A stretch of 64,000 nucleotides of DNA from an uncultured bacterium (GCA_964421875.1 CAYQZD010000003.1:2843-66842), one strand, 5' to 3'; positions 30,240 through 62,046 are shown, counted from the stretch's first letter. A program made the numbers and translations. Notes: generated by a model not told the origin, from the sequence alone.

Positions 30240-30334
30240 AATCCAAGTGTCTTTTTGGTAGGGGTGTTCAAATTGTCACTTCTGACGGGTATATCACCCT
30301 TTGTGTCGCAGAGTCCCCGCAACACATCAGCTCA

Positions 30335-30404
30335 GTAGGGGCGAAGCATTCTTAATTTATCAACAAAATTATTAAAGATTTATGCTGGAATGCTTCGCCC
30401 CTAC
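30335..30404. repeat. Perfect 17-bp inverted repeat GTAGGGGCGAAGCATTC / GAATGCTTCGCCCCTAC with a 36-nt AT-rich loop
   Basis: Arms at 30335-30351 and 30388-30404 are exact reverse complements. GTAGG-headed. Confidence 0.9.
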
Positions 30405-30487
30405 AAAAACAAACTTGCCATTCAAGTTAGCGCATATCCCCCTATCTACCTTTAGAAAAGGAAGAAACCAGGCGGGATATCCCCCTT

Positions 30488-31369
30488 TCACGCATCCAAT
30501 TTTAATAAAGGCTCGATAACCTTCGAAAGGACTTCGGTAGTTTTTCCCCCTTTGGCGCCGGCGGAAATCAGCGGAGTTCCCTTATCGCCGGAACTGACGA
30601 ATTCCGGATCGACGGGCACTGCGCCCAGGAAGGGGACTTTAAGCTCGGCAGCCATTTTCTCTCCGCCGCCGCTGCTGAAAATATCGGTCGCCTGGCCGCA
30701 GTGCGGACAAACAAAACCGCTCATATTCTCAATCACACCTAAGATAGGAAGGTCTAATTTGCGGCAGAACTGAATGGAACGGCGCACATCTTCGATGGCG
30801 AGTTCCTGTGGAGTGGTGACAATCACCGCGCCCCTGGCGCTGGGGATAAGCTGGGCTATCGACAGCGGTTCATCGCCGGTGCCGGGAGGTGAATCCACAA
30901 TAAGGTAATCCAGTTCCCCCCACTCCACATCGCGCAGGAACTGCTTAATCACACCGTATTTCATCGGTCCCCGCCAGATAACAGCGTCGTCCTTGTTTTT
31001 AACAAGAAAACCGATGGACATCACTTTCAGATTGGAATCATAGCGCACCGGGAGCAGGGAGTTTTCCGTGGCGGCGACCGGCGCGCCGTTGAGTCCCAGC
31101 AGCCGGGGGATGCTGGGACCGTGAACATCGATATCCATCAGTCCGGTCCGCTTCCCGGCTTGACTCAGCGCCGCGGCGAGGTTGACCGCCACAGTGCTTT
31201 TTCCCACGCCGCCCTTCCCGGACAAAACCATTATAGTATGCTTGATTTGACAGAGGCGCTGGTTTAATAACTGCCTTTCCTGGAATTCTTTATCGTCTTC
31301 GCCCTCCATTTGTTTCTTCGCGGGGCATTCGCCGTCTTCGCAAGAGCTGCATTCTTTCTCTTCGTTCAT
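30488..31369 (-). CDS. Mrp/NBP35/ApbC family Fe-S cluster carrier ATPase
   Basis: 293 aa. Deviant Walker A VLSGKGGVGKSTVAVNLA, CPHCG motif, Cys-rich N-terminus. Confidence 0.9.
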   Translation of the reverse strand: MNEEKECSSCEDGECPAKKQMEGEDDKEFQERQLLNQRLCQIKHTIMVLSGKGGVGKSTVAVNLAAALSQAGKRTGLMDIDVHGPSIPRLLGLNGAPVAATENSLLPVRYDSNLKVMSIGFLVKNKDDAVIWRGPMKYGVIKQFLRDVEWGELDYLIVDSPPGTGDEPLSIAQLIPSARGAVIVTTPQELAIEDVRRSIQFCRKLDLPILGVIENMSGFVCPHCGQATDIFSSGGGEKMAAELKVPFLGAVPVDPEFVSSGDKGTPLISAGAKGGKTTEVLSKVIEPLLKLDA

Positions 31370-31399
31370 TATATCTCTACTTTCTGATTTTGATTTATT

Positions 31400-31497
31400 G
31401 GTAACGCTTTACTAATGTGAAGAGTAAGCGTCATTCTGGCCGCGAAGCGAGCCAGAATCCTTCTTCTCCGGAGGGATTCCGGCTGCGCCGGAATGAC
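31400..31497 (+). repeat. Module B, long form
   Basis: GGTAACGCTTTACTAATGTGAAGAGTAAGC + GTCATTCTGGCCGCGAAGCGAGCCAGAATCC + TTCTTCTCCGGAGG + GATTCCGGCTGCGCCGGAATGAC. Begins 30 nt from the Mrp start codon. Confidence 0.9.
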
Positions 31498-31510
31498 AAT
31501 TAGGCTATCT

Positions 31511-32256: not shown

Positions 32257-32340
32257 ATTCAGGATTCAGGATTCTGGATTCTGGATTCTGGATTCTGGAT
32301 TCTGGATTCAGTATTCAGTATTCAGTATTCAGTATTCTTC
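32257..32340. repeat. 7-nt tandem array C, 12 units (2x ATTCAGG, 4x ATTCTGG, 5x ATTCAGT, 1x ATTCTTC)
   Basis: Perfect 7-nt phase from 32257. Ends at the nucleotide before the OPT stop codon (32341-32343) and runs into the open frame of the DUF364 gene. Confidence 0.95.
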
Positions 32341-34403: not shown

Positions 34404-34438
34404 AGCCGGCAGTCGGCAATCGGTAATCGGCTGTCGGC
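34404..34438. repeat. 7-nt tandem array N (NNTCGGC)
   Basis: agccggc agtcggc aatcggt aatcggc tgtcggc. Lies about 40 nt upstream of the OPT start. Confidence 0.75.
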
Positions 34439-34440
34439 TT

Positions 34441-34463
34441 GTAGGGCGGAATCTGATTCCGCC
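34441..34463 (+). repeat. GTAGG-headed hairpin
   Basis: GTAGGGCGGAATctgATTCCGCC, with 8-bp stem GGCGGAAT/ATTCCGCC. Confidence 0.85.
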
Positions 34464-34523
34464 GGTTGTCTCTAATCGAAGAGACTGCATAATCCCCGCA
34501 CGCTTCAGCGCTCACGACGAAAG

Positions 34524-34546
34524 GTAGGCGGGGGGTTCATCCCCCC
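34524..34546 (+). repeat. GTAGG-headed hairpin
   Basis: GTAGGCGGGGGGttcatCCCCCC. A sister copy is at 56810-56832. Confidence 0.8.
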
Positions 34547-34641
34547 GTATCATTTTTCCGCGTTCCCAATCTCATACGAGGGAAAATATGCAATGGTGCG
34601 ATAGAGTCCCTGCACTCTGTCGCATTAATTTGTGAGTTTCC

Positions 34642-34673
34642 CTCATTCCCACACTCCCGCGTGGGAACGCATA
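34642..34673 (+). repeat. PU4 hairpin (CTCATTCCCACACTCCCGCGTGGGAACGCATA)
   Basis: Stem TTCCCAC(A/G)C/GCGTGGGAA. Copy 1 of 9, all in the same orientation. Confidence 0.9.
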
Positions 34674-36868: not shown

Positions 36869-37107
36869 AAGCGCTGATTCTTCATTTATGAATTAGGGTA
36901 AGGCAGCCTCGCAGGTCGAGGTTTTAATTATAGTGGCGCAAGGCGGCGAGAATAATCATCTGTGATGGTTCACGTGATCTTAAGGAATCCTTATACAACG
37001 TTTCCTAATAATATACAATTTTCTATCGTAATACACAAACGCTTATGGCTTAATATAGAGTGTTATCAATTGCGGTGTCATTCCGAGCGAAGCGAAGAAA
37101 CTCGCCC

Positions 37108-37139
37108 CTCATTCCCACCCTCCTGCGTGGAAATGCATA
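37108..37139 (+). repeat. PU4 hairpin, diverged copy, preceded by a PU5-like unit (37075-37106)
   Basis: CTCATTCCCACCCTCCTGCGTGGAAATGCATA. Upstream is GTGTCATTCCGAGCGAAGCGAAGAAACTCGCC. Confidence 0.8.
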
Positions 37140-39321: not shown

Positions 39322-39384
39322 GTGAATGGTGTATAGTGATTAGTGTCTGATGATTGGTGCTTAGTGTTTGGTGTATGGTGTCAC
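39322..39384. repeat. 7-nt tandem array K (GTGNNTR), 9 units; inverse complement of the CACCAAN arrays
   Basis: GTG/ATG at 39322, 39329, ... 39378 in exact 7-nt phase. Overlaps the in-frame region upstream of the antiporter TTG start. A degenerate second block lies at 39461-39512. Confidence 0.9.
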
Positions 39385-39432
39385 TTTACTGATTTGAGGT
39401 GCAAGTGTCATTCTGGCTGCGCCGGAATGACG
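39377..39432 (+). repeat. Module B, short form (its two hairpins fused into one hybrid)
   Basis: GGTGTCACTTTACTGATTTGAGGTGCAAGT + GTCATTCTGGCTGCGCCGGAATGACG. The left half matches the first hairpin of the long form and the right half matches the inverted second hairpin. Confidence 0.85.
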
Positions 39433-39638
39433 ATATGGGTAGTTGCTCTATAAAGATAAAGTGATACGGTGTATGGTTATTAGTGTATAGCAAATGGTGG
39501 TTAGTCGATGTGAAAATAGAATTCTCTTCTGAAAATATAGAGACAGAACGATTATGTCAATTTTAACCGCTCACATTTTCGCGCCTTTGGTGTTTTTTCG
39601 TGAACTTCGTGTTTTTAAAAACAGACTGATATTCAAGT

Positions 39639-39664
39639 GGCACAGGGTCTCCGCGCCCTGCGCC
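39639..39664 (+). repeat. GC-rich hairpin GGCACAGGGTCTCCGCGCCCTGCGCC
   Basis: Stem GGC(A/G)CAGGG/CCCTGCGCC. A sister copy is at 41025-41050 and a partial copy at 54075-54090. Confidence 0.8.
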
Positions 39665-39685
39665 CAACCTCACATTAAAACCGCC

Positions 39686-40918: not shown

Positions 40919-41024
40919 CTTATCTCCAATTGAAAGAAAATTTCAATAAAAAAGACTAAATAGTTATATAATTCTTCTGCTTCTAACATCAGCAAATATT
41001 GCACCAAGCGGCAGTATTCATCGT

Positions 41025-41050
41025 GGCGCAGGGTTTCCACACCCTGCGCC
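41025..41050 (+). repeat. GC-rich hairpin GGCGCAGGGTTTCCACACCCTGCGCC
   Basis: Perfect 10-bp stem GGCGCAGGGT/ACCCTGCGCC. Confidence 0.85.
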
Positions 41051-41085
41051 ATATACTGTATCTCTAAGATATGGTAACACTTTCC

Positions 41086-41117
41086 CTCATTCCCACGCTC
41101 CAGCGTGGGAATGCATA
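41086..41117 (+). repeat. PU4 hairpin
   Basis: CTCATTCCCACGCTCCAGCGTGGGAATGCATA, followed by a PU9-like unit (about 41140-41172). Confidence 0.9.
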
Positions 41118-41192
41118 CCGCCCGAAATTATAAGCGTTATATCTGGTCTTTAGCGAAGCGGAAAACTGACATCCTCCTTGCGTATCGCAGAA

Positions 41193-42907: not shown

Positions 42908-42908
42908 C

Positions 42909-42940
42909 CTCGTTCCCACACTCCCTCGTGGGAACGCATA
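42909..42940 (+). repeat. PU4 hairpin
   Basis: CTCGTTCCCACACTCCCTCGTGGGAACGCATA. Confidence 0.9.
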
Positions 42941-42966
42941 ATACTATTGTCATTGCGAGCGAAATT

Positions 42967-43028
42967 GTAGAGTGGGTTCTTAACCCACCAATTTACAAAT
43001 CCTTCCCCCTAACCGTAATCCCTCTTAA
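42967..43028 (+). repeat. PU1 + degenerate PU2 (start of duplicated block U1)
   Basis: GTAGAGTGGGTTCTTAACCCACCAATTTACAAATCCTTCCCCCTAACCGTAATCCCTCTTAAG. Confidence 0.9.
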
Positions 43029-43043
43029 GTCAACAAGTTCCCC

Positions 43044-43085
43044 GCAAATCGAATATCACAAATCAAAAATCGAAAATCGAAAATC
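43044..43085. repeat. 7-nt tandem array E1 (NAAAATC)
   Basis: gcaaatc gaatatc acaaatc aaaaatc gaaaatc gaaaatc. Confidence 0.85.
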
Positions 43086-43118
43086 ATAGCCACTATAGCC
43101 ACCATAGCCAGTGAATCC
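43085..43118 (+). repeat. ATAGCC nonamer block + AGTGAATCC
   Basis: CATAGCCACTATAGCCACCATAGCCAGTGAATCC. Confidence 0.85.
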
Positions 43119-43126
43119 TTCTTCAC

Positions 43127-43189
43127 TAAACCCTATACCCTAAATCCTTTATCCTTTACCCTAAACCCTATACCCTAAACCCTAAGTAA
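43127..43189. repeat. 7-nt tandem array F (TWWAYCC), 9 units
   Basis: taaaccc tataccc taaatcc tttatcc tttaccc taaaccc tataccc taaaccc taagtaa. Confidence 0.9.
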
Positions 43190-43190: not shown

Positions 43191-43228
43191 GTGCCCGCCT
43201 CCTCCCCGCGCCCGGCGGAATTTCTTCC
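43191..43228 (+). repeat. Unit M1 GTGCCCGCC..CCCGGCGGAATTTCTTCC
   Basis: A sister copy is at 45089-45126. Both lie directly upstream of a PU1 copy. Confidence 0.8.
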
Positions 43229-43235: not shown

Positions 43236-43297
43236 GTAGGGTGGGTTCTTAACCCACCAATTTACAAATCCTTCCCCCTAACCGGAATCCCTCTTAA
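43236..43297 (+). repeat. PU1 + degenerate PU2 (start of duplicated block U2)
   Basis: GTAGGGTGGGTTCTTAACCCACCAATTTACAAATCCTTCCCCCTAACCGGAATCCCTCTTAAG. Near-identical to 42967-43028. Confidence 0.9.
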
Positions 43298-43311
43298 GCA
43301 ACAAGTTCCCC

Positions 43312-43353
43312 GCAAATCAAATATCACAAATCAAAAATCAAAAATCGAAAATC
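43312..43353. repeat. 7-nt tandem array E2 (NAAAATC)
   Basis: gcaaatc aaatatc acaaatc aaaaatc aaaaatc gaaaatc. Confidence 0.85.
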
Positions 43354-43406
43354 ATAGCCATAACAGCCGTAACCTGTCAGCCTTCCGGCTGATAGCCAGT
43401 GAATTC
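43353..43406 (+). repeat. ATAGCC nonamer block + AGTGAATTC (with an inserted hairpin)
   Basis: CATAGCCATAACAGCCGTAACCTGTCAGCCTTCCGGCTGATAGCCAGTGAATTC. Confidence 0.8.
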
Positions 43407-43410
43407 TCTT

Positions 43411-43483
43411 CACCAGCCCCCAGCACACCAAGCACCCAGCACCTATCCCCAACCACCAATCACCAAACACCTGTAAACCGCCA
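43411..43483. repeat. 7-nt tandem array G (NCACCAA), about 10 units
   Basis: caccagc ccccagc acaccaa gcaccca gcaccta tccccaa ccaccaa tcaccaa acacctg taaaccg. Ends at the stop codon (43484-43486) of paralog B. Confidence 0.9.
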
Positions 43484-44410: not shown

Positions 44411-44433
44411 AGCTCCTCCTTATAGCCTTTGTG

Positions 44434-44593
44434 CTGTCGAGTCTCCGCAGTCTGTCCGAGAATATGTCATGCTGAGCGAAGCGAAGCATCTGCATTTTTG
44501 TAACTTATTTATAAATAAGAGATTCTTCATCCGACGGTTGGCGGATTCAGTATGACATTTTGAATTGTCAGACAGACTGTCTGCACTCGATAG
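44434..44593. repeat. MITE-like element with about 40-nt imperfect terminal inverted repeats
   Basis: The left arm CTGTCGAGTCTCCGCAGTCTGTCCGAGAATATGTCAT (44434-44470) pairs imperfectly with the right arm ATGACATTTTGAATTGTCAGACAGACTGTCTGCACTCGATAG (44552-44593). A PU5-like unit lies inside. Confidence 0.6.
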
Positions 44594-44651
44594 TATATTA
44601 TTGTTTTATAGGTATATACAGTAGGGTTCGGAGACCCTGCGACTCGAATTG

Positions 44652-45088: not shown

Positions 45089-45126
45089 GTGCCCGCCGGG
45101 TCCCCACACCCGGCGGAATTTCTCCC
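45089..45126 (+). repeat. Unit M1
   Basis: GTGCCCGCCGGGTCCCCACACCCGGCGGAATTTCTCCC. Confidence 0.8.
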
Positions 45127-45133: not shown

Positions 45134-45189
45134 GTAGGGTGGGTTCTTAACCCACCAATTTACAAGTCATTCCGGCGCAGCCGGAATCC
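45134..45189 (+). repeat. PU1 + PU2 composite
   Basis: GTAGGGTGGGTTCTTAACCCACCAATTTACAA + GTCATTCCGGCGCAGCCGGAATCC. Confidence 0.95.
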
Positions 45190-45195
45190 CTCCTC

Positions 45196-45221
45196 GTAGG
45201 GGCGGATCCCCGTATCCGCCC
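45196..45221 (+). repeat. GTAGG-headed hairpin
   Basis: GTAGGGGCGGATccccgtATCCGCCC, with 7-bp stem GGCGGAT/ATCCGCC. Confidence 0.85.
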
Positions 45222-45252
45222 TCTCCCTAAACGCCCCTACCGGCGGCAGGTG

Positions 45253-45280
45253 CCCGGCGGGTCTGAATGATCCGCCCTAC
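45253..45280 (-). repeat. PU7 (GTAGG-headed on the minus strand)
   Basis: The plus strand reads CCCGGCGGGTCTGAATGATCCGCCCTAC. Sister copies are at 45948-45976 and 54365-54392. Confidence 0.85.
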
Positions 45281-47645: not shown

Positions 47646-47734
47646 TGAAAATAGCGGCAGCGTAAATACGCGAGCCGTGAATTTTCATTCTAAGTTGTGC
47701 GAGGTCGCGATAGAGACCCTCGCATGAGGGTTTA
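47646..47734 (-). repeat. 92-nt structured element, copy 1
   Basis: Minus strand: TAAACCCTCATGCGAGGGTCTCTATCGCGACCTCGCACAACTTAGAATGAAAATTCACGGCTCGCGTATTTACGCTGCCGCTATTTTCA. Ends about 15 nt upstream of ATG 47628. Confidence 0.9.
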
Positions 47735-47825
47735 CCTTGAAAATAGCGGCAGCGTAAATACGCGAGCTGTGAATTTTCATTCTAAGTTGTGCGATGGTTC
47801 GCGAAGAGAATCCATCGAATGATGG
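47733..47825 (-). repeat. 92-nt structured element, copy 2 (tandem, period 92)
   Basis: The first 61 nt (47733-47793) are identical to copy 1 except for one base. The distal third carries co-varying substitutions (GATGG/CCATC/GATGG in place of GAGG/CCCTC/GAGGG). Confidence 0.9.
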
Positions 47826-47885
47826 TTTGTGTTTCGATTGGGGTATGCGCAATCTTCTAACCCTATGTTTCACCATTTCACCGTT

Positions 47886-50144
47886 TCACCGTTTCAACGC
47901 CTCCAACACCTTTTCCGGCGTAATAGGCAGACTGCGGATGCGAACCCCGATGGCGTCATAGACAGCATTGGCGATGGCGGCGGCGGTGGGAACCATCGGC
48001 ATCTCCCCCACACCCTTAGCCCCGAAAGGCCCTTCAGGGTCGATAGTCTCGACGAAAACTTTCTCAATTTCGGGAACGTCCAGCGGGGTCAGCATCTTGT
48101 AATCGGCGAAATTGGGGTTTTGGACTGCGCCTTCCTTCAATTGAATGTTCTCCAACAGCGCGTAGCCCACGCCCTGCGCCACGCCGCCTTCGACCTGCCC
48201 CTCCAGCGTCATCGGATTAATCACCCGCCCCACATCGTGAGCCGCCACGATTTTCAACACCTTGACCTGCCCTGTCTCCAAATCCACCTCCACTTCAGCC
48301 GACTGCGCCCCGAAACCGTAAGTGGCGGAAATATTCCCGTCCCAATGCTTGTCCTGCATCACCGTGGGCGGGTCGTAGAAATATTTCCCCACCACCACAT
48401 CGCCCCCCTCCCGAAAATGCCGCGCCCGAACCACTTTGCCATATGGCAGCGTCTTCGAAGGGTCGGATTTCATATAGACCTTGCCGTCCTTAATATCGAG
48501 GTTCTCCACCGGCTCCCCGGTCATCTTAGAAGCGGCTTCCAAAATCTGCCGCTTGGCGTCCAAAGCCGCCTTCACTACCGCGTTACCGGCGATAAAGGTG
48601 GTGCGGGAAGCGTGCACCCCCACATCCCAGGGGGAAGTGTCCGTGTCCTGCCAATCCAGAGTCACATTCTCCACCGGAACCGCTAAAGTCTCCGCCGCCA
48701 TCTGAGTCAACACCGCATCAGAACCCTGACCGATTTCCGTGGAACCGGAAATCACTGTAACATGCCCGAAATCATCCACCTTGACCATACACCCGCACCC
48801 GTCGGAACGGTAAATCCGCGCCCCCCCCCCCACATGAAGGCCGGCGGCGACTCCGGTTCCCCGGGCGATAGGCCCCTTACGCGCCCGCTTCTCGTTCAGT
48901 CTGATGCGCGCTGAGGCTTCTTCTATGCACTCCTTCAGCCCGCAGGAGGTGAACACCATCTTCTGCGGGGTGACATCGCCGGGGCGATTAGCGTTCATTA
49001 TGCGGAATTTCAGCCGGTCCATCCCCAACATCTCCGCTAATTCGTCCATCTGAGATTCCACCGCCAAAGTCGCCTCAGGATTGCCAAATCCCCGCATCGC
49101 CGAACCATAAGGATTGTTAGTGTAAACTATGTCCGCCTCGAATAAAATGTGCGGCACGCGGTAGAGCGAAGACACCGTCTGCATCGAAATAATCGGCGTA
49201 ACATTCCCCCAGGAATTGTAAGCCCCGTTGTCCCCCATAATGTAAGCTTGCCGCGCGGTCAGTTTCCCCTCCTTATCGACCCCGGTCTTCATATCGATAA
49301 CCATCGGCGGACGCGGCGGAGAATAGCGGAATTCCTCCTCCCGCGAATACTCCATCTTCACCGGCTTACCGGCGGCTTTCGCCAGCAAGGCGGCGATGAT
49401 TTCGTAGGGATAAAGGTCCAGCTTGGAGCCGAAACCGCCGCCGATAGCGGTCTGAATCACCCGAACCTGGCTCCCCTTAATCCCCAAAACATCCGCCATA
49501 TCCTTCTGGTACAAAAACGGCACCTGAGTCATCGAATACATCGTCAGCCTGCCGTCAAATCCCCATTCCGCCGCGCAGGCGCAGCTCCCCAAACAGCAAT
49601 GCGCCTGGAAAGGCAGTTCGAAACGCCCTTCGGCGACATACTCCGCCTCGCCGAAACCCCGCTCCACATCGCCGTAATCGTAACTGTAGCGGACCGACAA
49701 ATTCCCGGAGCTGCCCTCGTGAATCTGAGGCGCCCCCGGCTTAACCGCCTCGAAAGGATCGAACACCGCAGGCAGCTCTTTGTACTCGACCTTAATCAGC
49801 GAAGCCGCTTTCCGCGCCGCAATCTCATTGTCTGCCGCCAACGCCGCAATCTCGTCCCCCCGGCACTTCACCCGACCGAACTTCAGCGGATAATTATCCT
49901 TTCCGTAGCCGAATGGGATTTTCGGAGTGTCGTCAGCGGTAATAATCACCTTGACTCCCGGAACTTTGCGCGCCTGCTCAAGATCGATAGATAAAATCTC
50001 CGCATGAGCGAAATCGCTGCGCTTTATCGCGCCGAATAGCATCCCCGGCAGCGTCAAGTCGTGAGCGTAAACCGCGGCGCCGGCAGCTTTAGCCGGAGCG
50101 TCCGGTTTGGGGACGCGCTTGCCAATGTGGGTAAAATCAGTCAT
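47886..50144 (-). CDS. Molybdopterin-binding large subunit of a xanthine dehydrogenase/aldehyde oxidoreductase/CoxL family enzyme
   Basis: 752 aa. N-terminus IGKRVPKPDAPAKAAGAAVYAHDLTLPGMLFGAIKRS, GGGFGSK, and a C-terminal GAKGVGE motif. Confidence 0.9.
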   Translation of the reverse strand: MTDFTHIGKRVPKPDAPAKAAGAAVYAHDLTLPGMLFGAIKRSDFAHAEILSIDLEQARKVPGVKVIITADDTPKIPFGYGKDNYPLKFGRVKCRGDEIAALAADNEIAARKAASLIKVEYKELPAVFDPFEAVKPGAPQIHEGSSGNLSVRYSYDYGDVERGFGEAEYVAEGRFELPFQAHCCLGSCACAAEWGFDGRLTMYSMTQVPFLYQKDMADVLGIKGSQVRVIQTAIGGGFGSKLDLYPYEIIAALLAKAAGKPVKMEYSREEEFRYSPPRPPMVIDMKTGVDKEGKLTARQAYIMGDNGAYNSWGNVTPIISMQTVSSLYRVPHILFEADIVYTNNPYGSAMRGFGNPEATLAVESQMDELAEMLGMDRLKFRIMNANRPGDVTPQKMVFTSCGLKECIEEASARIRLNEKRARKGPIARGTGVAAGLHVGGGARIYRSDGCGCMVKVDDFGHVTVISGSTEIGQGSDAVLTQMAAETLAVPVENVTLDWQDTDTSPWDVGVHASRTTFIAGNAVVKAALDAKRQILEAASKMTGEPVENLDIKDGKVYMKSDPSKTLPYGKVVRARHFREGGDVVVGKYFYDPPTVMQDKHWDGNISATYGFGAQSAEVEVDLETGQVKVLKIVAAHDVGRVINPMTLEGQVEGGVAQGVGYALLENIQLKEGAVQNPNFADYKMLTPLDVPEIEKVFVETIDPEGPFGAKGVGEMPMVPTAAAIANAVYDAIGVRIRSLPITPEKVLEALKR

Positions 50145-50188: not shown

Positions 50189-50213
50189 GTAGGTCGGCTT
50201 ATTCAAAGCCGAC
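50189..50213 (+). repeat. PU6 hairpin
   Basis: GTAGGTCGGCTTATTCAAAGCCGAC, identical to the copy at 45917. Confidence 0.9.
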
Positions 50214-50232
50214 ATAATGCGTTGATTCAGGC

Positions 50233-50290
50233 GTATGATGGGTTCTTAACCCACCAATTTACAAATCTTTCCGTCACTGCCGGAATCCCT
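50233..50290 (+). repeat. PU1 + degenerate PU2
   Basis: GTATGATGGGTTCTTAACCCACCAATTTACAAATCTTTCCGTCACTGCCGGAATCCCT. Confidence 0.85.
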
Positions 50291-50294
50291 CTTC

Positions 50295-50320
50295 GTAGGG
50301 GCGAACGGCAGTTCGCCCCT
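50295..50320 (+). repeat. GTAGG-headed hairpin
   Basis: GTAGGGGCGAACggcaGTTCGCCCCT, with a 9-bp stem. Confidence 0.9.
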
Positions 50321-50422
50321 ATCGGTAACTGGTAACCGGTAATAGCCGTGACAGCCTGTGAATCCATCTTCACTAAACACCAAGCATCAAATACCGTTTA
50401 ACTGTTCAAACGTTTCACTATC

Positions 50423-51421
50423 TCACCATTCCGCATCACCGTAAAACAATCCGGCGACATCGCCTGTAATAACTCGAATCCTCCCTACCTCCGTCCCGGA
50501 CAGTTTCTTTTTCCAATTCACCGCGGCGGCGCGGCTGTCGAGCTTCACGTTCTGATATTCCCCCTGCCGCCATTCGGCGGGATTGGAGGATTCGCTGTGA
50601 GCCCTGATTTCCCCTTCAATCTGTGGTGTGTATTCGAGGTTCAGCCGCTGGAAAAGGTCTTTATAACCTTCCACCGGCGCCGCAGAAATATCCTCGTGCC
50701 GAAGGAAAACCCAGTCCGGATGCTTGTCCCGGTATTTATCCACAATGTAATAGAAACACTTCCAGGCTAAAGCCGCGCTCTCCACCAAATCGGGCTCACC
50801 CGAAGCGAATTCCTCAATCTCCCCCCTGAACGGTTCAAGGTAATCCCGCATTAACAATGGCTGGCTGAGAAAAGTGGAATGCCGGAAATTCCATCCCAGC
50901 CGCTTCAAACTGCTGACGAATGCGGAGGGATGGCGTATCATCACCACTACCCTCATATCGAAGCGCGAAGCCAGCCATTCCGCCCCCAGCAGCGCGATAG
51001 GATCCTTAACCAGCGGACAAGATTTATCCGCGTAGTGTTTAACAAAATCTACATAGTTCTCCAGCGCCGCAATCTCCGGCGCCAGATATTCCCTGGGAAG
51101 TCTGCCCGCTTCAAGTCCCAGCATTTTCACCGCAGAGGCGATGTCGAACCGAAAATTCAGTATGTTGCGAATATGCGGGTAGAATTTCTCTTCATTCTCC
51201 CGGGTCACATAAGCGAACCAGGGAAAATCCGGATTGCCTATCCCCGGCTCCCCTTCGGGATTGAAAGGCTCATGGATATATCCCGTGCCCGGCGCTAATT
51301 CCAGCATCTTCCCCACCCAGGTCGTCCCGGAACGGTGAGCCCCCGTCACTAAGATGGGCCGCTTATCGAATGCGTGATTAATCCATCCTCCTCGTTCCCA
51401 CGCTCCAGCGTGGAAACGCAT
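50423..51421 (-). CDS. Sulfotransferase family protein
   Basis: 332 aa. PAPS 5'-phosphosulfate loop ILVTGAHRSGTTWVGKML. The only canonical in-frame start (ATG 51421) lies inside a PU4 repeat copy. Confidence 0.75.
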   Translation of the reverse strand: MRFHAGAWERGGWINHAFDKRPILVTGAHRSGTTWVGKMLELAPGTGYIHEPFNPEGEPGIGNPDFPWFAYVTRENEEKFYPHIRNILNFRFDIASAVKMLGLEAGRLPREYLAPEIAALENYVDFVKHYADKSCPLVKDPIALLGAEWLASRFDMRVVVMIRHPSAFVSSLKRLGWNFRHSTFLSQPLLMRDYLEPFRGEIEEFASGEPDLVESAALAWKCFYYIVDKYRDKHPDWVFLRHEDISAAPVEGYKDLFQRLNLEYTPQIEGEIRAHSESSNPAEWRQGEYQNVKLDSRAAAVNWKKKLSGTEVGRIRVITGDVAGLFYGDAEW

Positions 51422-51422
51422 A
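51391..51422 (+). repeat. PU4 hairpin overlapping the 5' end of the sulfotransferase ORF
   Basis: CTCGTTCCCACGCTCCAGCGTGGAAACGCATA. Its reverse complement supplies ATGCGTTTCCAC.. = MRFHAGAWERG. Confidence 0.9.
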
Positions 51423-51561
51423 CCACTAATGTCGCCCTAAATAAACCGTAGGGTGGGATTAGCGATTAACTAACTATATTTACATTGATTATGTCATTCT
51501 GAACAAAGTGAAGGGTCTGCGCGTTGAATAATGAAAAAAAACCTTCATCTCGTTCACAGTC

Positions 51562-51586
51562 GAAGGTCGGCTTATTTAAAGCCGAC
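51562..51586 (+). repeat. PU6 hairpin, variant
   Basis: GAAGGTCGGCTTATTTAAAGCCGAC. Confidence 0.85.
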
Positions 51587-51628
51587 ATTATACGTTATAT
51601 CAGTCTTAAGTTTCAAACCATCACCAAC

Positions 51629-51706
51629 TGTCATAGCGAACGAAGTGAAGCAATCGGGTAATACACAGCGTTAAGTCAGATATTTTACAAAGTTGATACC
51701 TGAATC
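51629..51706 (+). repeat. Module C (PU5 + PU9), diverged copy
   Basis: TGTCATAGCGAACGAAGTGAAGCAATCGGGTAATACACAGCGTTAAGTCAGATATTTTACAAAGTTGATACCTGAATC. Confidence 0.85.
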
Positions 51707-51802
51707 CAATTGTGTCGCAGAGTCCCCGCACTCTGCGACATTGCCCCCTCCCGATACATAATATCCTCTAACCTGGTAAAAAAAGATATAACCTTATAAC
51801 TT

Positions 51803-51844
51803 TCACCATTCATCCTTCAGCATTCAGCATTCAGCTTTACCCTA
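51803..51844. repeat. 7-nt tandem array M (CANCNTT)
   Basis: caccatt catcctt cagcatt cagcatt cagcatt cagcttt. Overlaps the pgeF stop (51837-51839). Confidence 0.85.
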
Positions 51845-53904: not shown

Positions 53905-53951
53905 AGTTCCTGTAATATAATGAATCTTTAAACATATCTTCTATCGTTCCC

Positions 53952-53983
53952 CTCGATCCCACGCTCCCGCGTGGGAATGCATA
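53952..53983 (+). repeat. PU4 hairpin
   Basis: CTCGATCCCACGCTCCCGCGTGGGAATGCATA. Confidence 0.9.
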
Positions 53984-53994: not shown

Positions 53995-54068
53995 TGTCAT
54001 TGCGAACGAAGTGAATCAATCGAGTTATTCTGCATTAAGTCAGGTCTTTAGCGAAGCGGAGACCTGAC
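53995..54068 (+). repeat. Module C (PU5 + PU9)
   Basis: TGTCATTGCGAACGAAGTGAATCAATCGAGTTATTCTGCATTAAGTCAGGTCTTTAGCGAAGCGGAGACCTGAC. The PU9 stem is GTCAGGTCT/AGACCTGAC. Confidence 0.9.
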
Positions 54069-54121: not shown

Positions 54122-54176
54122 GTGGGGTGGGTTCTTAACCCACCAATTTACAAGTCATTCCGGCGCAGCCGGAATC
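54122..54176 (+). repeat. PU1 + PU2 composite
   Basis: GTGGGGTGGGTTCTTAACCCACCAATTTACAA + GTCATTCCGGCGCAGCCGGAATC. Confidence 0.95.
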
Positions 54177-54364
54177 TTTCTTTCCCCCCTTAGAATAAGA
54201 GGGGCAGGGGAGATTTACTCGTTGCACGCTCCCGCATAAGAATGTATAAACCTCCAACAATCGGTAAAGTGCGTGAATGAACAATCATCTGTGCTGTCGA
54301 GTCTCCGCTTTAGACATCAAACCATAGTAAACCTCGTGCCGCAAAATCCCCCACTCTGCGACAT

Positions 54365-54392
54365 CCCGGCGCGTCTGAATGGCCCGCCCTAC
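54365..54392 (-). repeat. PU7
   Basis: The plus strand reads CCCGGCGCGTCTGAATGGCCCGCCCTAC. Confidence 0.8.
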
Positions 54393-54430
54393 ATACTAAC
54401 GAAATATCCGTAATAGCCTGCGTATCTTTT

Positions 54431-54465
54431 TCACCAACCACCAAACACCAAACACCATTTCCACC
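54431..54465. repeat. 7-nt tandem array I (NCACCAA)
   Basis: tcaccaa ccaccaa acaccaa acaccat ttccacc. Confidence 0.85.
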
Positions 54466-56699: not shown

Positions 56700-56768
56700 T
56701 GTCATTGCGAACGAAGTGAAGCAATCGGGTAATATTCCGAGTTAAGTCAGGTCTTAAGCGAAGCGTTT
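56700..56768 (+). repeat. Module C (PU5 + PU9)
   Basis: TGTCATTGCGAACGAAGTGAAGCAATCGGGTAATATTCCGAGTTAAGTCAGGTCTTAAGCGAAGCG. Confidence 0.9.
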
Positions 56769-56769
56769 C

Positions 56770-56801
56770 CTCGTTCCCACGCTCCAGCGTGGGAATGCAT
56801 A
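56770..56801 (+). repeat. PU4 hairpin
   Basis: CTCGTTCCCACGCTCCAGCGTGGGAATGCATA. Confidence 0.95.
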
Positions 56802-56809: not shown

Positions 56810-56832
56810 GTAGGCGGGGGATTCATCCCCCC
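56810..56832 (+). repeat. GTAGG-headed hairpin
   Basis: GTAGGCGGGGGattcatCCCCCC. Confidence 0.8.
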
Positions 56833-56859: not shown

Positions 56860-56943
56860 GTCTTCGGGCTTTGGTCTTCGGTTCTCCGTTCTCCGTTATC
56901 TGTTCTCAGTTCTCAGTTCTCAGTTATCTGTTCTCCGTTATCT
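56860..56943. repeat. 7-nt tandem array D (GTTCTCN / GTTATCT), 12 units
   Basis: gtcttcg ggctttg gtcttcg gttctcc gttctcc gttatct gttctca x3 gttatct gttctcc gttatct. The last unit overlaps the aminotransferase stop (56942-56944). Confidence 0.95.
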
Positions 56944-58955: not shown

Positions 58956-59044
58956 TGAAAATAGTGGCAGCGCTAATACGCGAGCCGTAAATTTTCATCT
59001 TAAATTGCGCAAGGTCGCGATAGAGACCCTCGAATGAGGGTTTA
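58956..59044 (-). repeat. 92-nt structured element, copy 3
   Basis: Minus strand: TAAACCCTCATTCGAGGGTCTCTATCGCGACCTTGCGCAATTTAAGATGAAAATTTACGGCTCGCGTATTAGCGCTGCCACTATTTTCA. Lies about 50 nt upstream of the lipid-kinase TTG start. Confidence 0.9.
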
Positions 59045-59100
59045 ATATAATATTACTGCAATTAATTTCAACTGTGATAGGCAAAAACATCGCGGCTTCC

Positions 59101-59132
59101 CTCGTTCCCACGCTCCAGCGTGGGAATGCATA
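59101..59132 (+). repeat. PU4 hairpin
   Basis: CTCGTTCCCACGCTCCAGCGTGGGAATGCATA, identical to the copy at 56770. Confidence 0.95.
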
Positions 59133-59206
59133 CCATCTCCGATAACGGCTATAACGTTGCGCTATGCCTTTAGCGAAGCGGAGACCTGACAGTGTTCTCG
59201 TTTCCC

Positions 59207-59238
59207 CTCGTTCCCACGCTCCCGCGTGCGAATGCATA
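59207..59238 (+). repeat. PU4 hairpin
   Basis: CTCGTTCCCACGCTCCCGCGTGCGAATGCATA, preceded by a PU9 unit (about 59168-59190). Confidence 0.9.
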
Positions 59239-59264
59239 CTAGGGAATCTGTCATTGCGCACAAA

Positions 59265-59318
59265 AGAGTGGGTTCTTAACCCACCAATTTACAAGTCATT
59301 CCGGCGTAACCGGAATCC
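59265..59318 (+). repeat. PU1 + PU2 composite
   Basis: AGAGTGGGTTCTTAACCCACCAATTTACAA + GTCATTCCGGCGTAACCGGAATCC. Confidence 0.95.
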
Positions 59319-59376
59319 TTCTTCCTAGTGAGCTTTCAAATGAACGCCCGCTGCAACGGGATGAACCTCCCGCCTA

Positions 59377-60198
59377 CTACCTATCACACCTTTGGCACCG
59401 AGGACAATAAAAAGAACTCCTACCCCCCGAAACCATCCGCTGAATCTCTGCACCGCAAACCGGACACTCCTCCCCCGCCTTGCCGTAAACCCGGAGAAAG
59501 TCCTGGAATCCCCCCGAATCCATATCCGGTCGTTTGTAATCAGAGATGGTGGTGCCGCAGCATTCGATCGCTTCCCCCAATACCGCCCGAATCTCCGATA
59601 CTAAACCTTCAAGCCGCTCCCGTGATAAAACCTGACACCCGGTCGAAGGATGAATCCCGGCTCGATAAAGTATCTCTGAGACGTAGATATTCCCTAACCC
59701 CGCTATCACCGACTGGTCCAGCAGCAGCTCCTTAATCGCCCGCCTGCGTCTAACGAACGCATCGGCTAAGTAATCGGCGCTGAATTCCGAATTCAGCGGT
59801 TCCGCGCCCAGTCTTTCTATCGCAGGGATAACAGCCCCGGAACCGTAATACCTGAGACGACCGAAACGACGGACATCATCCATCGCCAAACCGAACCGCT
59901 CGAACTCGAAACGTGCCACAGTGTGTTTGCCCGAAGCGGTTCCCTTCTCCACGAGTCTGAATACGCCGGTCATCCCCAGATGAGCTAAAATAATTCCCTC
60001 GGAAAGCCGGAACAGCAGATACTTACCCCGCCGCTCAACCGCTTCGATTCGCTTCCCCGATACCGACCTTACAAACTCCGCCGAACTTTGTCCCCGCAAA
60101 TAACTCTCCCGCAGTACCGAACAACCTGTGATGATTCTGCCCTTCAGTGCAGGCGCCAACTCCCGGCGCACCGTTTCAACTTCAGGAAGTTCCGGCAT
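59377..60198 (-). CDS. mutM: Formamidopyrimidine-DNA glycosylase
   Basis: The ATG at 60198 gives MPELPEVETVRREL (catalytic Pro2). C-terminal zinc finger CPVCGAEIQRMVSGGRSSFYCPRCQ. The ATG overlaps the upstream TGA (TGATG). Confidence 0.95.
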   Translation of the reverse strand: MPELPEVETVRRELAPALKGRIITGCSVLRESYLRGQSSAEFVRSVSGKRIEAVERRGKYLLFRLSEGIILAHLGMTGVFRLVEKGTASGKHTVARFEFERFGLAMDDVRRFGRLRYYGSGAVIPAIERLGAEPLNSEFSADYLADAFVRRRRAIKELLLDQSVIAGLGNIYVSEILYRAGIHPSTGCQVLSRERLEGLVSEIRAVLGEAIECCGTTISDYKRPDMDSGGFQDFLRVYGKAGEECPVCGAEIQRMVSGGRSSFYCPRCQRCDR

Positions 60199-61622
60199 CA
60201 CCCGACCGGATTGATGGTCATCAAACGAAGCTCGCTCATCTCCTCCATCGCATAGCGCACTCCCTCCCGACCAAAACCGGAATTTTTAACCCCGCCATAG
60301 GGCATATGGTCCACCCGAAAAGTCGGAATATCGCCCACTATGACTCCGCCAACCTCAAGCGTTTCGAAGGCGCGCCAGGCTTTGTTCAAATCCGAAGTGA
60401 ACACCCCCGCCTGCAAACCGTAATCCGAATCGTTCACCTCCGCCAAAGCATCCTCGAACTCGCGGTACTTGGAAACAACTACCACCGGGGCGAAAATCTC
60501 CGAGCTGTACGCCGGCTGGGAACGGGGAACTCCCGCAAGCGCCGTCGCAGGGAACATCCGCCCCTCCCTTTCGCCGCCCAGCAACATCTCCGCTCCTGCC
60601 TCGACCGCGCTCTTCACCCAGGATTCAGCCTTCTCCGCTGAAGCAAGGTCTATCATCGGACCCAAACGCGTCTCCTCGTCCAAAGGGTTCCCCGGCTTCA
60701 AAGCTTTTGCTTCTTCCAAAAATGCCGCTAAAAACCGGTCGTAAATATCCTCCTGAAGGATTATACGTTGTATCGAAATGCAAATCTGCCCGGCGTAGGA
60801 ATATGCGCCAGTGATGCAACGCTCCACCGCGTAATCAAGCGTTCCCGGGTCGTCCACAATCACCGCAGCGTTGCCCCCCAGTTCCAGGGTAACCTTCATC
60901 CTGCCGCAAAGCGATTTCAAACGCCAGCCCACCTTCGGAGAGCCGGTGAACGTCAGCTTCTTCAAACGAAAATCCCTCAGAATCTTCTCCGCAGCCGCGC
61001 CCCGGCAGGGAATCACGGATACAGCCTCCTCTGGCCAGCCCGATTCTAAAATAACCTCCCCCAATTTCAAAGCCGTGAACGGCGCGCTGGACGACGGCTT
61101 GACAATGACAGGATTACCCACCGCAATCGCGGGCGCAACTTTGTGCGCCACTAAGTTCAACGGAAAATTGAAGGGAGAAATCGCCAGCGTCGGACCGACA
61201 GGGAAACGCCGGGTGAATCCCCACCTTCCGGCGGTGGGAGGAATCGTGTCCAGCGGGATGACTTCGCCGCCGAAACGCTTGCTCTCTTCCGAGGCGATGC
61301 TGAAGGTGTTGACGGCGCGGGAAACTTCGCCCCGGGCGTCTTTTATGGGCTTACCCGCTTCCAGAGCGATAGTCTCGGCGAATTCCTCCAAACGGTTGGC
61401 GATTCCCATCGTTATCCGACCTAAAATCTGGGAACGGTCGGCGGAACTCAAACGGCGCGTCTTTTCAAAACCCTGAACCGCCTTGTCCACCGCTAACTTG
61501 AGGTCATCCTCGCCCCCCGATGAAACCTCAGCCACTATGGAACCGTCGTAAGGATTATCCACCGAAATCGTCCCGGCGCCGTTAATCCACTCCCCCCCGA
61601 TAAGAAGCTGATATTTTTTCAT
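60198..61622 (-). CDS. NAD(P)-dependent aldehyde dehydrogenase family protein
   Basis: 474 aa. FTGSPKVG, TLELGGNA, YAGQICIS (catalytic Cys), EIFAPV. Confidence 0.9.
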   Translation of the reverse strand: MKKYQLLIGGEWINGAGTISVDNPYDGSIVAEVSSGGEDDLKLAVDKAVQGFEKTRRLSSADRSQILGRITMGIANRLEEFAETIALEAGKPIKDARGEVSRAVNTFSIASEESKRFGGEVIPLDTIPPTAGRWGFTRRFPVGPTLAISPFNFPLNLVAHKVAPAIAVGNPVIVKPSSSAPFTALKLGEVILESGWPEEAVSVIPCRGAAAEKILRDFRLKKLTFTGSPKVGWRLKSLCGRMKVTLELGGNAAVIVDDPGTLDYAVERCITGAYSYAGQICISIQRIILQEDIYDRFLAAFLEEAKALKPGNPLDEETRLGPMIDLASAEKAESWVKSAVEAGAEMLLGGEREGRMFPATALAGVPRSQPAYSSEIFAPVVVVSKYREFEDALAEVNDSDYGLQAGVFTSDLNKAWRAFETLEVGGVIVGDIPTFRVDHMPYGGVKNSGFGREGVRYAMEEMSELRLMTINPVG

Positions 61623-61645
61623 TTCCGCTTTCTCTATATGATAAA

Positions 61646-61743
61646 GGTAACACTTTACTGATATGAAGCGTATTCGTCATTCTGGCTGCGAAGCAAGCCA
61701 GAATCTTTCTTTCCCGGAAGGATTCCGGCTGCACCGGAATGAC
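61646..61743 (+). repeat. Module B, long form
   Basis: GGTAACACTTTACTGATATGAAGCGTATTC + GTCATTCTGGCTGCGAAGCAAGCCAGAATC + TTTCTTTCCCGGAAG + GATTCCGGCTGCACCGGAATGAC. Begins 23 nt from the ALDH start codon. A PU9 unit follows (about 61766-61797). Confidence 0.9.
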
Positions 61744-61888
61744 TATCTTGCTTGAAGTTCGCGTTATGTCAGGTCTTTAGCGCCCCGGAAACCTGACATT
61801 TACCCAGCCGCAAACCCTGATTTCTTAAAACCGCCCGGGCCTGCAAGCTTAAGCCCTAAGTATAAATCAACTTTTTTACTCCAAAAAC

Positions 61889-61917
61889 TTGACAAATGTT
61901 CAGCGATTTCTTAGATT
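61889..61917 (+). promoter_or_regulatory. Possible sigma70 promoter on the plus strand (antisense to the gene direction)
   Basis: TTGACA, 17 nt (aatgttcagcgatttct), TAGATT. Downstream is a GC hairpin GGGGGC..GCCCCC and the 3' end of speB on the other strand. No ORF follows. Confidence 0.25.
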
Positions 61918-62046
61918 ACCTAAGAGGGGGCTTTTACAACTCCGGCAGCGCCCCCGGGGGGAGTACATACTCTTCCTCTCTAAGTCTTAATCATCATTAT
62001 CATCATCAAAGACCGGCGTTCAAACCGATTCCGGAGTAATTGCGGA

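Follow-up and report, generated by a model that had tools for sequence, protein, structure and literature searches.

Repetitive extragenic palindromes (REPs) of the GTAG and CGTC superfamilies consist of a 4-nt tag beside a 6-13 bp stem with a short loop (Di Nocera et al. 2013, PMC3733652), and REP hairpins joined by conserved short linkers form the extragenic mosaics of Escherichia coli known as bacterial interspersed mosaic elements (BIMEs; Gilson et al. 1991), for which Y1 amplification has been proposed (Ton-Hoang et al. 2012, PMC3333891). In Pseudomonas fluorescens SBW25, REP doublets (REPINs) insert into or next to other REPINs, and tandem REP arrays are opposite on the two replichores (PMC3116915); genes for REP-associated tyrosine transposases (RAYTs) have been reported with the REPe family of P. 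fluorescens (PMC3390384). The mosaic intergenic regions of Neisseria, in the passages of PMC3733652 that cite them, hold CGTC-1/dRS3 hairpins interleaved with other repeat families. Here we describe a mosaic of such hairpins in a 64,000-nt stretch of DNA from an uncultured bacterium (GCA_964421875.1 CAYQZD010000003.1:2843-66842; the window), where it occupies the gaps between genes from 30240 to 62046. A sequence-only reading had drawn attention to this region, and our analysis confirms that the REP-type hairpin mosaic of 30-62 kb is real and is an unusually rich case of a known phenomenon in a little-studied lineage.

All of its components are of known kinds, i.e., GTAG and CGTC REPs, REPe, REPIN-like doublets and heptamer arrays. 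It is unusual in how many families it combines, in their single head-to-tail polarity and recurring order, in the position of arrays at stop codons, in the lineage of its host, and in units that are nearly identical between genomes whose coding identity is 72%. With the GTAG and CGTC superfamilies the window shares sub-families with compensatory stem changes, several families per genome and a location mostly downstream of open reading frames (ORFs); the CGTC types have, in both cases, an AT start, a CCA-like tail and near-identity across distant taxa, and the GTAG types are more lineage-specific (PMC3733652). Head-to-tail copies are called rare in that work, whereas most copies here are singletons of the same polarity, and at least 15 families follow one another in an order that recurs. 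The Zixibacteria-related lineage of the host is apparently not among the eight phyla mentioned in the abstract of PMC3733652.

The BIMEs of E. coli are likewise extragenic mosaics with conserved linkers, however, their palindromic units (PUs) alternate in orientation and belong to three related types (Y, Z1 and Z2), whereas the families here are mutually unrelated and uniform in orientation, and the linkers are unrelated to the E. coli S, L, s, l and r motifs. With the REPIN-RAYT and REPe systems (PMC3116915, PMC3390384) the window has in common a unit that matches REPe, PU4, and a set of inverted doublets (E-K, D-K, 30336-30424, C2-PU2 and an M1 pair); insertion beside existing elements and replichore-dependent tandem arrays are features of the SBW25 system (PMC3116915). 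REPe forms an inverted dimer of 70-130 nt, whereas PU4 is always a singleton here and no cognate RAYT was seen in the window or in contigs of the lineage. REPIN-RAYT systems are, moreover, described as vertically inherited and lineage-specific, whereas PU4 is common to at least seven phyla. The Neisseria regions resemble the window, by the short description in PMC3733652, in their large mosaic gaps, and one unit at 23178 is dRS3-like; the bounding of units by dRS3 inverted repeats mentioned in that description is not seen here.

Density, polarity and order of the repeats

Fifteen seed units were searched with blastn-short, and perfect hairpins were defined by a stem of 7 or more and a loop of 3-12. 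Such hairpins occur at 5.2 per kb in the intergenic DNA of 30-64 kb, compared with 1.8 per kb in that of 1-30 kb and 0.6-0.8 per kb in coding DNA, and the gaps hold 32 of them against 2.6 ± 1.5 after shuffling. The gaps singled out in the sequence-only reading thus are chains drawn from a small hairpin vocabulary, as it had claimed. The PU4 consensus has 6 matches at up to 3 mismatches in the window (0 expected), and blastn-short finds 9 good copies and 1 degenerate copy, every one on the plus strand; PU1 has 7 matches, 7/7 on the plus strand (0 expected), one of which, at 5935, is outside the mosaic range. These counts and the common polarity agree with the earlier ones. In a self-comparison of the window nearly all repeated segments are intergenic, with self-matches of 116-190 nt. 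The intergenic units are shown to be real, highly over-represented hairpins of published REP types, and about 15 small hairpin repeat families are co-resident here with 7-base tandem arrays.

Catalogued units and arrays make up 46% of the intergenic bases in 30240-62046. The proposal that the gaps have little unique sequence is borne out for gaps such as 42879-43483, where coverage is 81%, and is overstated for several others, since coverage ranges from 21 to 81% per gap. The first 30 kb, described before as almost free of units, is depleted (9% of intergenic bases) and not empty: it contains PU1 at 5935, an M1 inverted pair at 22915/22972, CGTC-like units at 17606-17683 and 23179, and heptamer arrays at 3121, 3899 and 8413. 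Logan contigs from three SRA runs, assembled independently, are 100% identical to the window over 43395-44481, 47801-50215 and 51713-54062; they cross gap edges, include a PU4-M1-I chain at 53951-54062, and stop inside repeat units. The organism is represented in samples SRR24302418, SRR24302423 and SRR8146443. Chimeric assembly is thus excluded at least for the edges of the gaps.

Among 83 oriented copies, 75 lie on the plus and 8 on the minus strand (61 and 7 without the near-palindromic G, G2, H and J copies). Fifteen gaps have a plus majority, two are tied and none has a minus majority, and the minus copies are mostly partners in inverted pairs (C2/PU2 at 31430/31471 and 61676/61717; M1 at 22915/22972). 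The term BIME-like, applied to the mosaic before, fits in that the mosaic is built of REP/PU hairpins, but strictly speaking it is no BIME, since the alternation of orientation that defines BIMEs is absent. The genes, ordinary housekeeping and envelope functions, are on the minus strand in 48 of 51 cases, much as the sequence-only reading had it for the flanking genes; an exception is the divergent gap 53905-54551 between a minus-strand gene and a plus-strand rubrerythrin gene, where the full chain and its plus polarity are nevertheless kept. GC skew is negative throughout the window.

The order of units is not random either. Ordered adjacencies seen at least twice account for 37 of 76, compared with 19.4 ± 4.3 in within-gap shuffles (0/5000 reach the observed value), which upholds the preferred order claimed before, and the signal persists without the duplicated half of gap 42879-43483 (31 vs 15.7; 0/5000 shuffles). 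The commonest adjacencies are PU1>PU2 (6), nonamers>AGTGAAT hairpin (4), hairpin>7-nt array (4) and PU4>M1 (3); M1>I, K>nonamers, J>PU1 and C2>PU2(-) also recur. An alignment of seven composite stretches (A1) reveals one backbone common to all, with the order [J, E or M1 fragment] - PU1 - AATTTACAA - PU2 - variable middle - nonamers - AGTGAAT hairpin - 7-nt array. The linker AATTTACAA joins PU1 and PU2 in 7/7 copies, and other linkers are conserved too. Gap 42879-43483 carries two backbone copies, with a 134-nt block duplicated at 94% identity; PU2 is eroded in two backbone copies; and the copy at 54100, in gap 53905-54551, has a nested 160-nt insert with a degenerate PU4 and two G hairpins. 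The recurring order is thus shown to be largely a composite backbone copied as blocks, followed by nested insertion, deletion and erosion. The shared backbone and the 134-nt duplicate support the earlier view of the units as modules of larger composites, however, the composite is not the sole unit of spread, since single units turn up by themselves, as PU1 does at 5935, or in different combinations, such as PU4 with M1 and I, or E paired with K or PU1.

Unit families and heptamer arrays

The units do not amount to a new vocabulary, as they can be placed in the GTAG and CGTC REP superfamilies (PMC3733652) and in Pseudomonas REPe (PMC3390384). Perfect GTAG-tagged hairpins number 11 on the plus and 1 on the minus strand (0.6 expected) and comprise at least 5 stem families; 9 further perfect hairpins are C/TGTC-tagged and 6, belonging to PU4, are CCTC-tagged. 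In PU1, D, E, F and the hairpin at 34441 the GTAG directly precedes, on the 5' side, a stem of 6-11 bp, and unit K is a GTAG type on the opposite strand. By tag and stem layout, all six are assigned to the published GTAG superfamily (PMC3733652). PU1 occurs at 5935..5959 (consensus match, tag count) and, together with its AATTTACAA linker, at 42967..42998, 43236..43267, 45134..45165, 50233..50264, 54122..54153 and 59265..59294 (consensus match, blastn-short and alignment A1), all on the plus strand, as are the units below, apart from those marked as minus-strand and from the doublets, the inverted pairs, the tandem arrays and the hairpins at 17606..17683, 30336..30424 and 39407..39431, which carry no strand. 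The 34441..34465 hairpin (GTAGGGCGGAATCTGATTCCGCC) and a D variant at 50293..50321 emerged from the tag count; family F at 34524..34547 and 56810..56832 and family E at 50189..50214 were found by blastn-short and tag count, and blastn-short alone gave a reverse F copy on the minus strand (59358..59377), an E copy with a mutated tag (51564..51587) and K at 54365..54392, which reads as a GTAG REP on the minus strand. With D or E, K forms doublets whose GTAG tags face outward, D(+)...K at 45196..45280 and E(+)...K at 45917..45976 (blastn-short, tag count), and the E-K pairing is also present in a sister contig (L236:2736-2813). A long REPIN-like hairpin at 30336..30424, GTAGGGGCGAAGCATTC...GAATGCTTCGCCCCTAC, is similar to these D-K and E-K doublets. 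Doublets of REPIN type are few (45196-45280, 45917-45976 and 30336-30424), and most units are singletons.

PU2, C2, M1 and the unit at 23178 have CGTC or TGTC tags, AT-starting stems and CCC or CCA tails, with the layout GTC-ATTCCGGC-GCAG-CCGGAAT-CCC in PU2; M1 has the tag and AT start of CGTC REPs but a 12-nt loop, where the superfamily usually has 4-5 nt on a stem of 8-9 bp beside a CGTC, TGTC or CCTC tag. These features assign PU2, C2, M1 and the dRS3-like unit to the CGTC superfamily, of which Neisseria dRS3 is a member. CGTC REPs mostly form head-to-head dimers. In the window, dimers are found at 22915/22972, 31430/31471 and 61676/61717, yet seven M1 and four PU2 copies are plus-strand singletons. 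PU2 was located by blastn-short and alignment A1 at 45166..45192, 50266..50291 (degraded), 54154..54176 and 59295..59321, and A1 adds two homologues with eroded hairpins at 42999..43029 and 43268..43298. The inverted C2(+)/PU2(-) pairs span 31430..31497, with CGTC tags outward, and 61676..61743 (blastn-short, tag count); a CGTC-type hairpin, GTCATTCTGGC..GCCGGAATGAC, lies at 39407..39431 (blastn-short), the dRS3-like REP TGTCATTCCCGCGAAAGCGGGAATCC at 23178..23206 and two CGTC-like hairpins at 17606..17683 (tag count). M1, a TGTC-tagged CGTC-type REP traced throughout by blastn-short, forms an inverted pair with outward TGTC tags at 22915..22998 and recurs at 37076..37103, 51629..51656, 53995..54022 and 56700..56727, as variants at 44465..44492 and 51492..51519, as fragments at 42948..42963 and 59249..59264, and on the minus strand at 45331..45358.

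PU4 is the unit with the closest published counterpart. Its reverse complement is the REPe hairpin GCATTCCCACGC-loop-GCGTGGGAACGA, the consensus of P. fluorescens A506 and SS101 (Table S10, PMC3390384), and the exact PU4 stem is present at many Pseudomonas loci; full-text literature searches with the PU4 sequence returned no relevant paper; the match comes solely from this supplementary table. All nine copies in the window are singletons followed by GCATA, and no GGACGC hairpin, the inner element of the REPe-style inverted dimer whose outer element is TTCCCACGC, stands beside any of them. The blastn-short search placed PU4 at 34641..34673 (also in the tag count), 37107..37139 and 42908..42940, and with the consensus match at 41085..41117, 51390..51422, 53951..53983 (where Logan contigs agree), 56769..56801, 59100..59132 and 59206..59238; the degenerate copy, inside the nested insert, is at 54218..54248 (blastn-short, alignment A1). 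The copy at 51390..51422 overlaps the listed ATG of ORF 50423-51421, the true start of which is probably further downstream. A CRISPR array was considered and rejected: the PU4 copies are 0.1-10 kb apart in separate gaps, and Pfam found no cas domains in the ORFs of the window.

G, H and J share the loop YYCCRC on different complementary stems of 9-11 bp; 7/11 pairs are changed on both sides and 95.5% of cells are paired, in copies that had been selected for pairing. Members of this group are H at 39638..39665 (loop CTCCGC) and 41024..41051 (loop TTCCAC) and J at 45089..45123 (loop CCCCAC; also by blastn-short), all three from the pairing analysis; by blastn-short, a degraded J at 43191..43225, half a G-type hairpin at 30302..30321, a reverse G/H-type hairpin on the minus strand at 44621..44643, two G-type hairpins in the nested insert at 54290..54363, and G itself, a TGTC-tagged palindrome, at 51711..51740; and G-type hairpins at 34596..34625 and, degraded, 44432..44461. 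G2 is found at 47696..47734 and 59006..59044 (blastn-short), with a second copy of the former at 47788..47826 (self-comparison). The remaining vocabulary consists of unit I, ATAGCC nonamers, the AGTGAAT hairpin and 17 tandem arrays of period 7. Unit I, a GTCAGGTC..GACCTGAC hairpin, was detected by blastn-short at 41137..41170, 54035..54068 and 61764..61797, degraded at 51671..51703, truncated at 56742..56765 and as its 3' half at 59168..59190. Nonamers followed by the AGTGAAT hairpin are at 43086..43128, 43354..43412 (with a small hairpin inserted among the nonamers), 45283..45320 and 45979..46016, a TGTGAAT version at 50340..50378, and a nonamer remnant at 54403..54431 (blastn-short, alignment A1).

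The heptamer arrays are regarded as a separate, slippage-type component. Each has its own heptamer, and 8 of 18 arrays terminate within 15 nt of the upstream gene's stop codon, compared with 1.3 expected (0/10000). The distance is 5 nt for 3121..3167 (gene 3173-3892), 2 nt for 8413..8511 (gene 8514-10499), 3 nt for 32257..32337 (gene 32341-34362), 11 nt for 43411..43472 (gene 43484-44410) and 1 nt for 51802..51835 (gene 51837-52577); array 56881..56943 touches the stop codon of 56942-58030, and two arrays extend into stop codons, the 7-nt array 46017..46062 into that of gene 46054-47688 and the 8-nt array 47867..47896 into that of gene 47886-50144. The last residues of these two gene products are encoded by repeat DNA and could therefore vary by slippage. 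Further 7-nt arrays are at 3899..3926, 34407..34431, 43045..43086 and 43314..43354 (both AAATCAA), 43126..43185 (CTAAACC), 50323..50342 and, in the divergent gap and adjoining no stop codon, 54432..54457; two G/T-rich arrays flank the CGTC hairpin within 39322..39505. Array 43126-43185, (CCCTAAA/CCCTATA)n, has the same unit as the plant-type telomere repeat, which is probably a coincidence, since the arrays use many heptamers.

Cyanobacterial STRRs are intergenic tandem heptamer repeats whose unit varies by locus. Work of Mazel in 1990 and Elhai in 2008 is said to describe such heptamers together with nested small dispersed repeats. The window resembles them in its intergenic period-7 arrays, in the change of unit from locus to locus and in the small hairpin repeats nested in larger elements, and differs from the published cyanobacterial heptamers in array sequence. 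The TAACTGA repeats of Beggiatoaceae are intergenic period-7 arrays as well, however, they use one heptamer, just upstream of start codons, whereas the arrays here use many and abut stop codons (PMC4679880).

Sister genomes and other phyla

The closest named homologues of a GatE-like protein of the window are from 'candidate division Zixibacteria' (65% identity) and an 'FCB group bacterium', and by this protein the host is assigned to a Zixibacteria-related bacterium of the FCB group. The protein itself (3961-5880, minus strand, 639 aa) has a GatB_N domain, and its homologues are annotated as GatE, subunit E of the archaeal-type Glu-tRNA(Gln) amidotransferase; its context is bacterial, FCB/Zixibacteria-like, and it has thousands of homologues in bacterial metagenomes. 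Two window proteins have type IX secretion system (T9SS) sorting domains. The dcw cluster attributed to the first 30 kb proved to be only its first genes, mraZ, rsmH and ftsL, at the left edge of the window, by synteny with sister contig L239.

Syntenic sister contigs are available from two relatives, L239/L240 (GatE 71% identical) and L236/L237 (67%), and gene order is conserved with them across 16 kb. Over 13.4 kb, the coding DNA of the window and L239 has 72% identity, and none of their intergenic DNA can be aligned. The vocabulary of the sister contigs is nonetheless the same: G is identical at 30/30 positions at three sites, PU4 at 31/32 and N9 at 28/30, and E followed by a K-like partner, CGTC pairs, reverse-strand GTAG hairpins and heptamer arrays also occur. 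Unit identity between the sister genomes is 93-100%, at non-orthologous sites, which implies turnover or homogenization. The positions of units differ between the two genomes. The adjacent type I phosphodiesterase paralogues at 8514-12642 (minus strand) overlap by 20 nt in the window, whereas their L239 counterparts are 113 nt apart with a G unit between them; the GatE-PCMT gap is 68 nt in the window and 445 nt in L239; and PU1 at 5935 and array 8413-8511 have no counterpart at the orthologous L239 sites. The G unit at 51711..51740, identical in the sister genome, is also exact in 29 JGI metagenome contigs, which typically end at G. Units are thus shown to turn over between sister genomes while remaining near-identical in sequence. 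Near-identical units at shifting positions suggest that copies are still being made from conserved sources or that the sequence is strongly constrained, and do not look like relics.

In L239 the GatE-PCMT gap (11735-12179) holds a palindromic composite of roughly 400 nt, with nonamers and an inverted CGTC-type pair in the middle and, at its ends, a (CAAGTCN)n array opposite its reverse complement (NGACTTG)n; these arrays may act as inverted ends. In L236 an IS1 transposase lies near a PU4, and a 2.1-kb repeat-rich gap contains three tRNA-like sequences, recognized by eye, at 3540-4110; a tRNA scan of the window found none.

Outside the lineage, GTDB representative genomes from at least seven phyla contain the PU4 stem, in at least 118 stretches. 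Its hosts include Pseudomonas, Methylococcales, Thiotrichales, Chromatiales, Beta- and Alphaproteobacteria, Desulfobacterota, Planctomycetota, Chloroflexota, Cyanobacteria, Acidobacteriota and Campylobacterota. The hairpin is flanked by (A/C)TCG at one end and by TGC at the other, an asymmetry conserved across at least seven phyla, in which PU4 is usually the outer hairpin of a palindromic double-hairpin dimer whose inner hairpins are GGACGC. Among PU4 singletons in other phyla, 12 have the same and 8 the opposite direction as the genes, by crude ORF calls. PU4 is found in 61 IMG/VR contigs and the dRS3-like unit in at least 120; M1 occurs in 112, as head-to-head dimers of CGTC type that have a CCAG tail. 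There are 0 matches to PU1, PU2, E or I in IMG/VR and 0 to PU1 with its linker in JGI metagenomes; these four units look lineage-restricted, as do the GTAG types. Cross-phylum CGTC types beside lineage-restricted GTAG types agree with the published remark that similarity is greater among CGTC elements than among GTAG elements (PMC3733652).

The peptide strings HAGAWERG, PTLERGNE, LRFARND and PAFAGMT are encoded by the minus strand of the units, and the suggestion that such strings recur across phyla is borne out in the underlying DNA for PU4, M1 and the dRS3-like unit, and fails for PU1, PU2, E and I. The same unit types are present in finished Pseudomonas and Scytonema genomes. In the Scytonema locus (L016) and in one other (L044), PU4 is followed by hairpins with other stems and the same GC-TCTG-GC apex (GTAGGC-TCTG-CCTAC and GTCGGC-TCTG-CCGAC), which suggests a loop-defined superfamily spanning GTAG-tagged units.

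Possible origins of the mosaics

We consider it rather probable that the mosaics consist of non-autonomous REP palindromes, interleaved with locally amplified 7- and 9-nt arrays, that were spread by RAYT-type Y1 activity in trans and by block duplication. Single units and doublets would move in the form of single-stranded DNA hairpins, which one or more RAYT-type HUH Y1 transposases, presumably encoded elsewhere in the genome, would cut and rejoin in trans; new copies would insert in or beside existing hairpins, and the resulting clusters would later be amplified by block duplication. The uniform polarity would arise from strand-specific transposition at the replication fork, provided that the window is part of one replichore with co-oriented genes, and selection against disruption of promoters and 3' ends may sharpen the pattern. 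What argues for mobility of REP type is the membership of the units in tagged REP superfamilies, the match of PU4 to REPe with its reported RAYT association, and the precedents of SBW25 and of IS200/IS605 elements, whose transposition favours the lagging-strand template (PMC3333891). A polarity that stays uniform over 30 kb is in line with a strand-specific process acting on a single replichore, and it is not simply tied to gene 3' ends, since the divergent gap 53905-54551 keeps it and PU4 elsewhere shows 12 against 8.

Several observations weigh against this mechanism. Most units are head-to-tail singletons, whereas the REP families described so far seldom contain head-to-tail dimers, and REPIN theory assigns mobility to inverted doublets. 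The replication direction was deduced from GC skew alone, which coding-strand bias could equally yield, and gene direction and presumed replication direction are confounded in the window. Polarity relative to genes is mixed in contigs of the lineage, with about 6 copies opposite and 3-4 the same. The compensatory signal of G, H and J is overstated and reflects sub-family structure more than unbiased covariation, because the copies were selected for pairing. No dedicated transposase is known for CGTC-type REPs (PMC3733652), and no Y1 or RAYT gene was found in the window, the sister contigs or 29 lineage contigs. For the window, Pfam on about 56 ORFs and tblastn detected no transposase, integrase or Y1 gene, in keeping with the sequence-only reading, and an HUH-motif prefilter with Pfam detected no Y1_Tnp in any of the loci compared. 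The tblastn query, an IS608 TnpA sequence that matches Pfam at E=1e-42, retrieved only one IS200, in viral contig L153 (40-700), with a TnpA that has Y1 motifs. It lies about 85 nt from an M1 head-to-head dimer (781-858) and was ruled out as the M1 transposase, since its own end hairpins, CCACCCGC-TAAG/TATG-GCGGGTGG, differ from M1; the arrangement is consistent with insertion of an IS element near REPs.

The chief alternative to trans mobilization is a function at the RNA level, with polarity and order kept by selection on the transcript and mobility secondary, which we judge to be rather unlikely. Almost every unit is located between genes of the same direction, the 7-nt arrays adjoin stop codons, and an RNA function has been argued for REPs, which are mostly downstream of ORFs (PMC3733652). 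Five independent PU4 stem substitutions, moreover, all leave G.U on the mRNA-sense strand, which folds better in 7/9 copies; however, all five are G>A on the plus strand, as the mutational skew of that strand would give and which explains the folding bias, and the consensus PU4 has a wobble pair on the other strand. Over all units, 30 copies fold better on the minus and 23 on the plus strand, which is not decisive. A transcript-level role is also difficult to reconcile with the divergent gap 53905-54551, which has the full chain in plus polarity without an upstream 3' end, with the lack of gene-direction bias of PU4 singletons in other phyla, and with N9 and two PU4 copies in contigs of the lineage, which are opposite in sense to the genes. 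Rfam gave 0 matches at gathering score in the 64 kb, and intrinsic terminators (a GC-rich hairpin with a T-run) are not in excess, with 27 sites compared with 22.6 ± 5.7 in shuffles.

That the composites are instead one long family of 150-300 nt, similar to miniature inverted-repeat transposable elements and moved whole by a conventional DDE transposase, with the 'units' being conserved sub-segments, appears quite improbable. The backbone shared over more than 100 nt with conserved linkers, the long self-matches, the 134-nt duplicate and the IS1 transposase near PU4 in L236 would be accounted for, but the composites end differently (J, E or M1 on one side, tandem arrays on the other) with no terminal inverted repeats or target-site duplications seen, the window has no transposase, and units occur alone or recombined (PU1 at 5935, PU4 with M1/I, E with K or PU1) and, in other phyla, without the remaining backbone. 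An artefact of assembly or binning, in which collapsed or chimeric repeats join unrelated contigs, is extremely unlikely. Short-read contigs of the organism do break at repeats, many of which the long scaffold must have bridged; against this, the Logan contigs of three runs are identical across gene-to-gap junctions, including PU4-M1-I, gene order is syntenic with the sister contigs, and the same unit types exist in the finished Pseudomonas and Scytonema genomes.

A more far-reaching proposal can also be made, which we hold to be unlikely as a whole. The chain would follow a 'grammar', in which a family inserts as single-stranded DNA, in one polarity, at a target made by the flank of another, with directional growth from gene ends; REP/RAYT-like systems, marked by the REPe-like and CGTC hairpins that are near-identical in seven or more phyla and also found in viral contigs, would spread between phyla; and heptamer arrays would be a distinct class of 3'-end element. 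PU2, which always follows the TTAC-containing linker of PU1, is an example of such a rule. Spread between phyla would, if true, go against the view that these systems are inherited vertically, and the three units common to phyla and viral contigs make the window a natural test of that view. It is likewise a natural test of whether polarity is set by replication or by transcription, in a field of REP and REPIN biology that rests nearly wholly on Proteobacteria, where the elements are inverted pairs.

The repeats also have practical consequences, in that they break short-read assemblies of the lineage and yield spurious 'hypothetical proteins', e.g., those with HAGAWERG-type peptides. Sigma-70-like promoter matches are mildly enriched in window positions 42500-62100 (24 vs 15.3 ± 3.5), and several of them lie inside AT-rich linkers of the mosaic.

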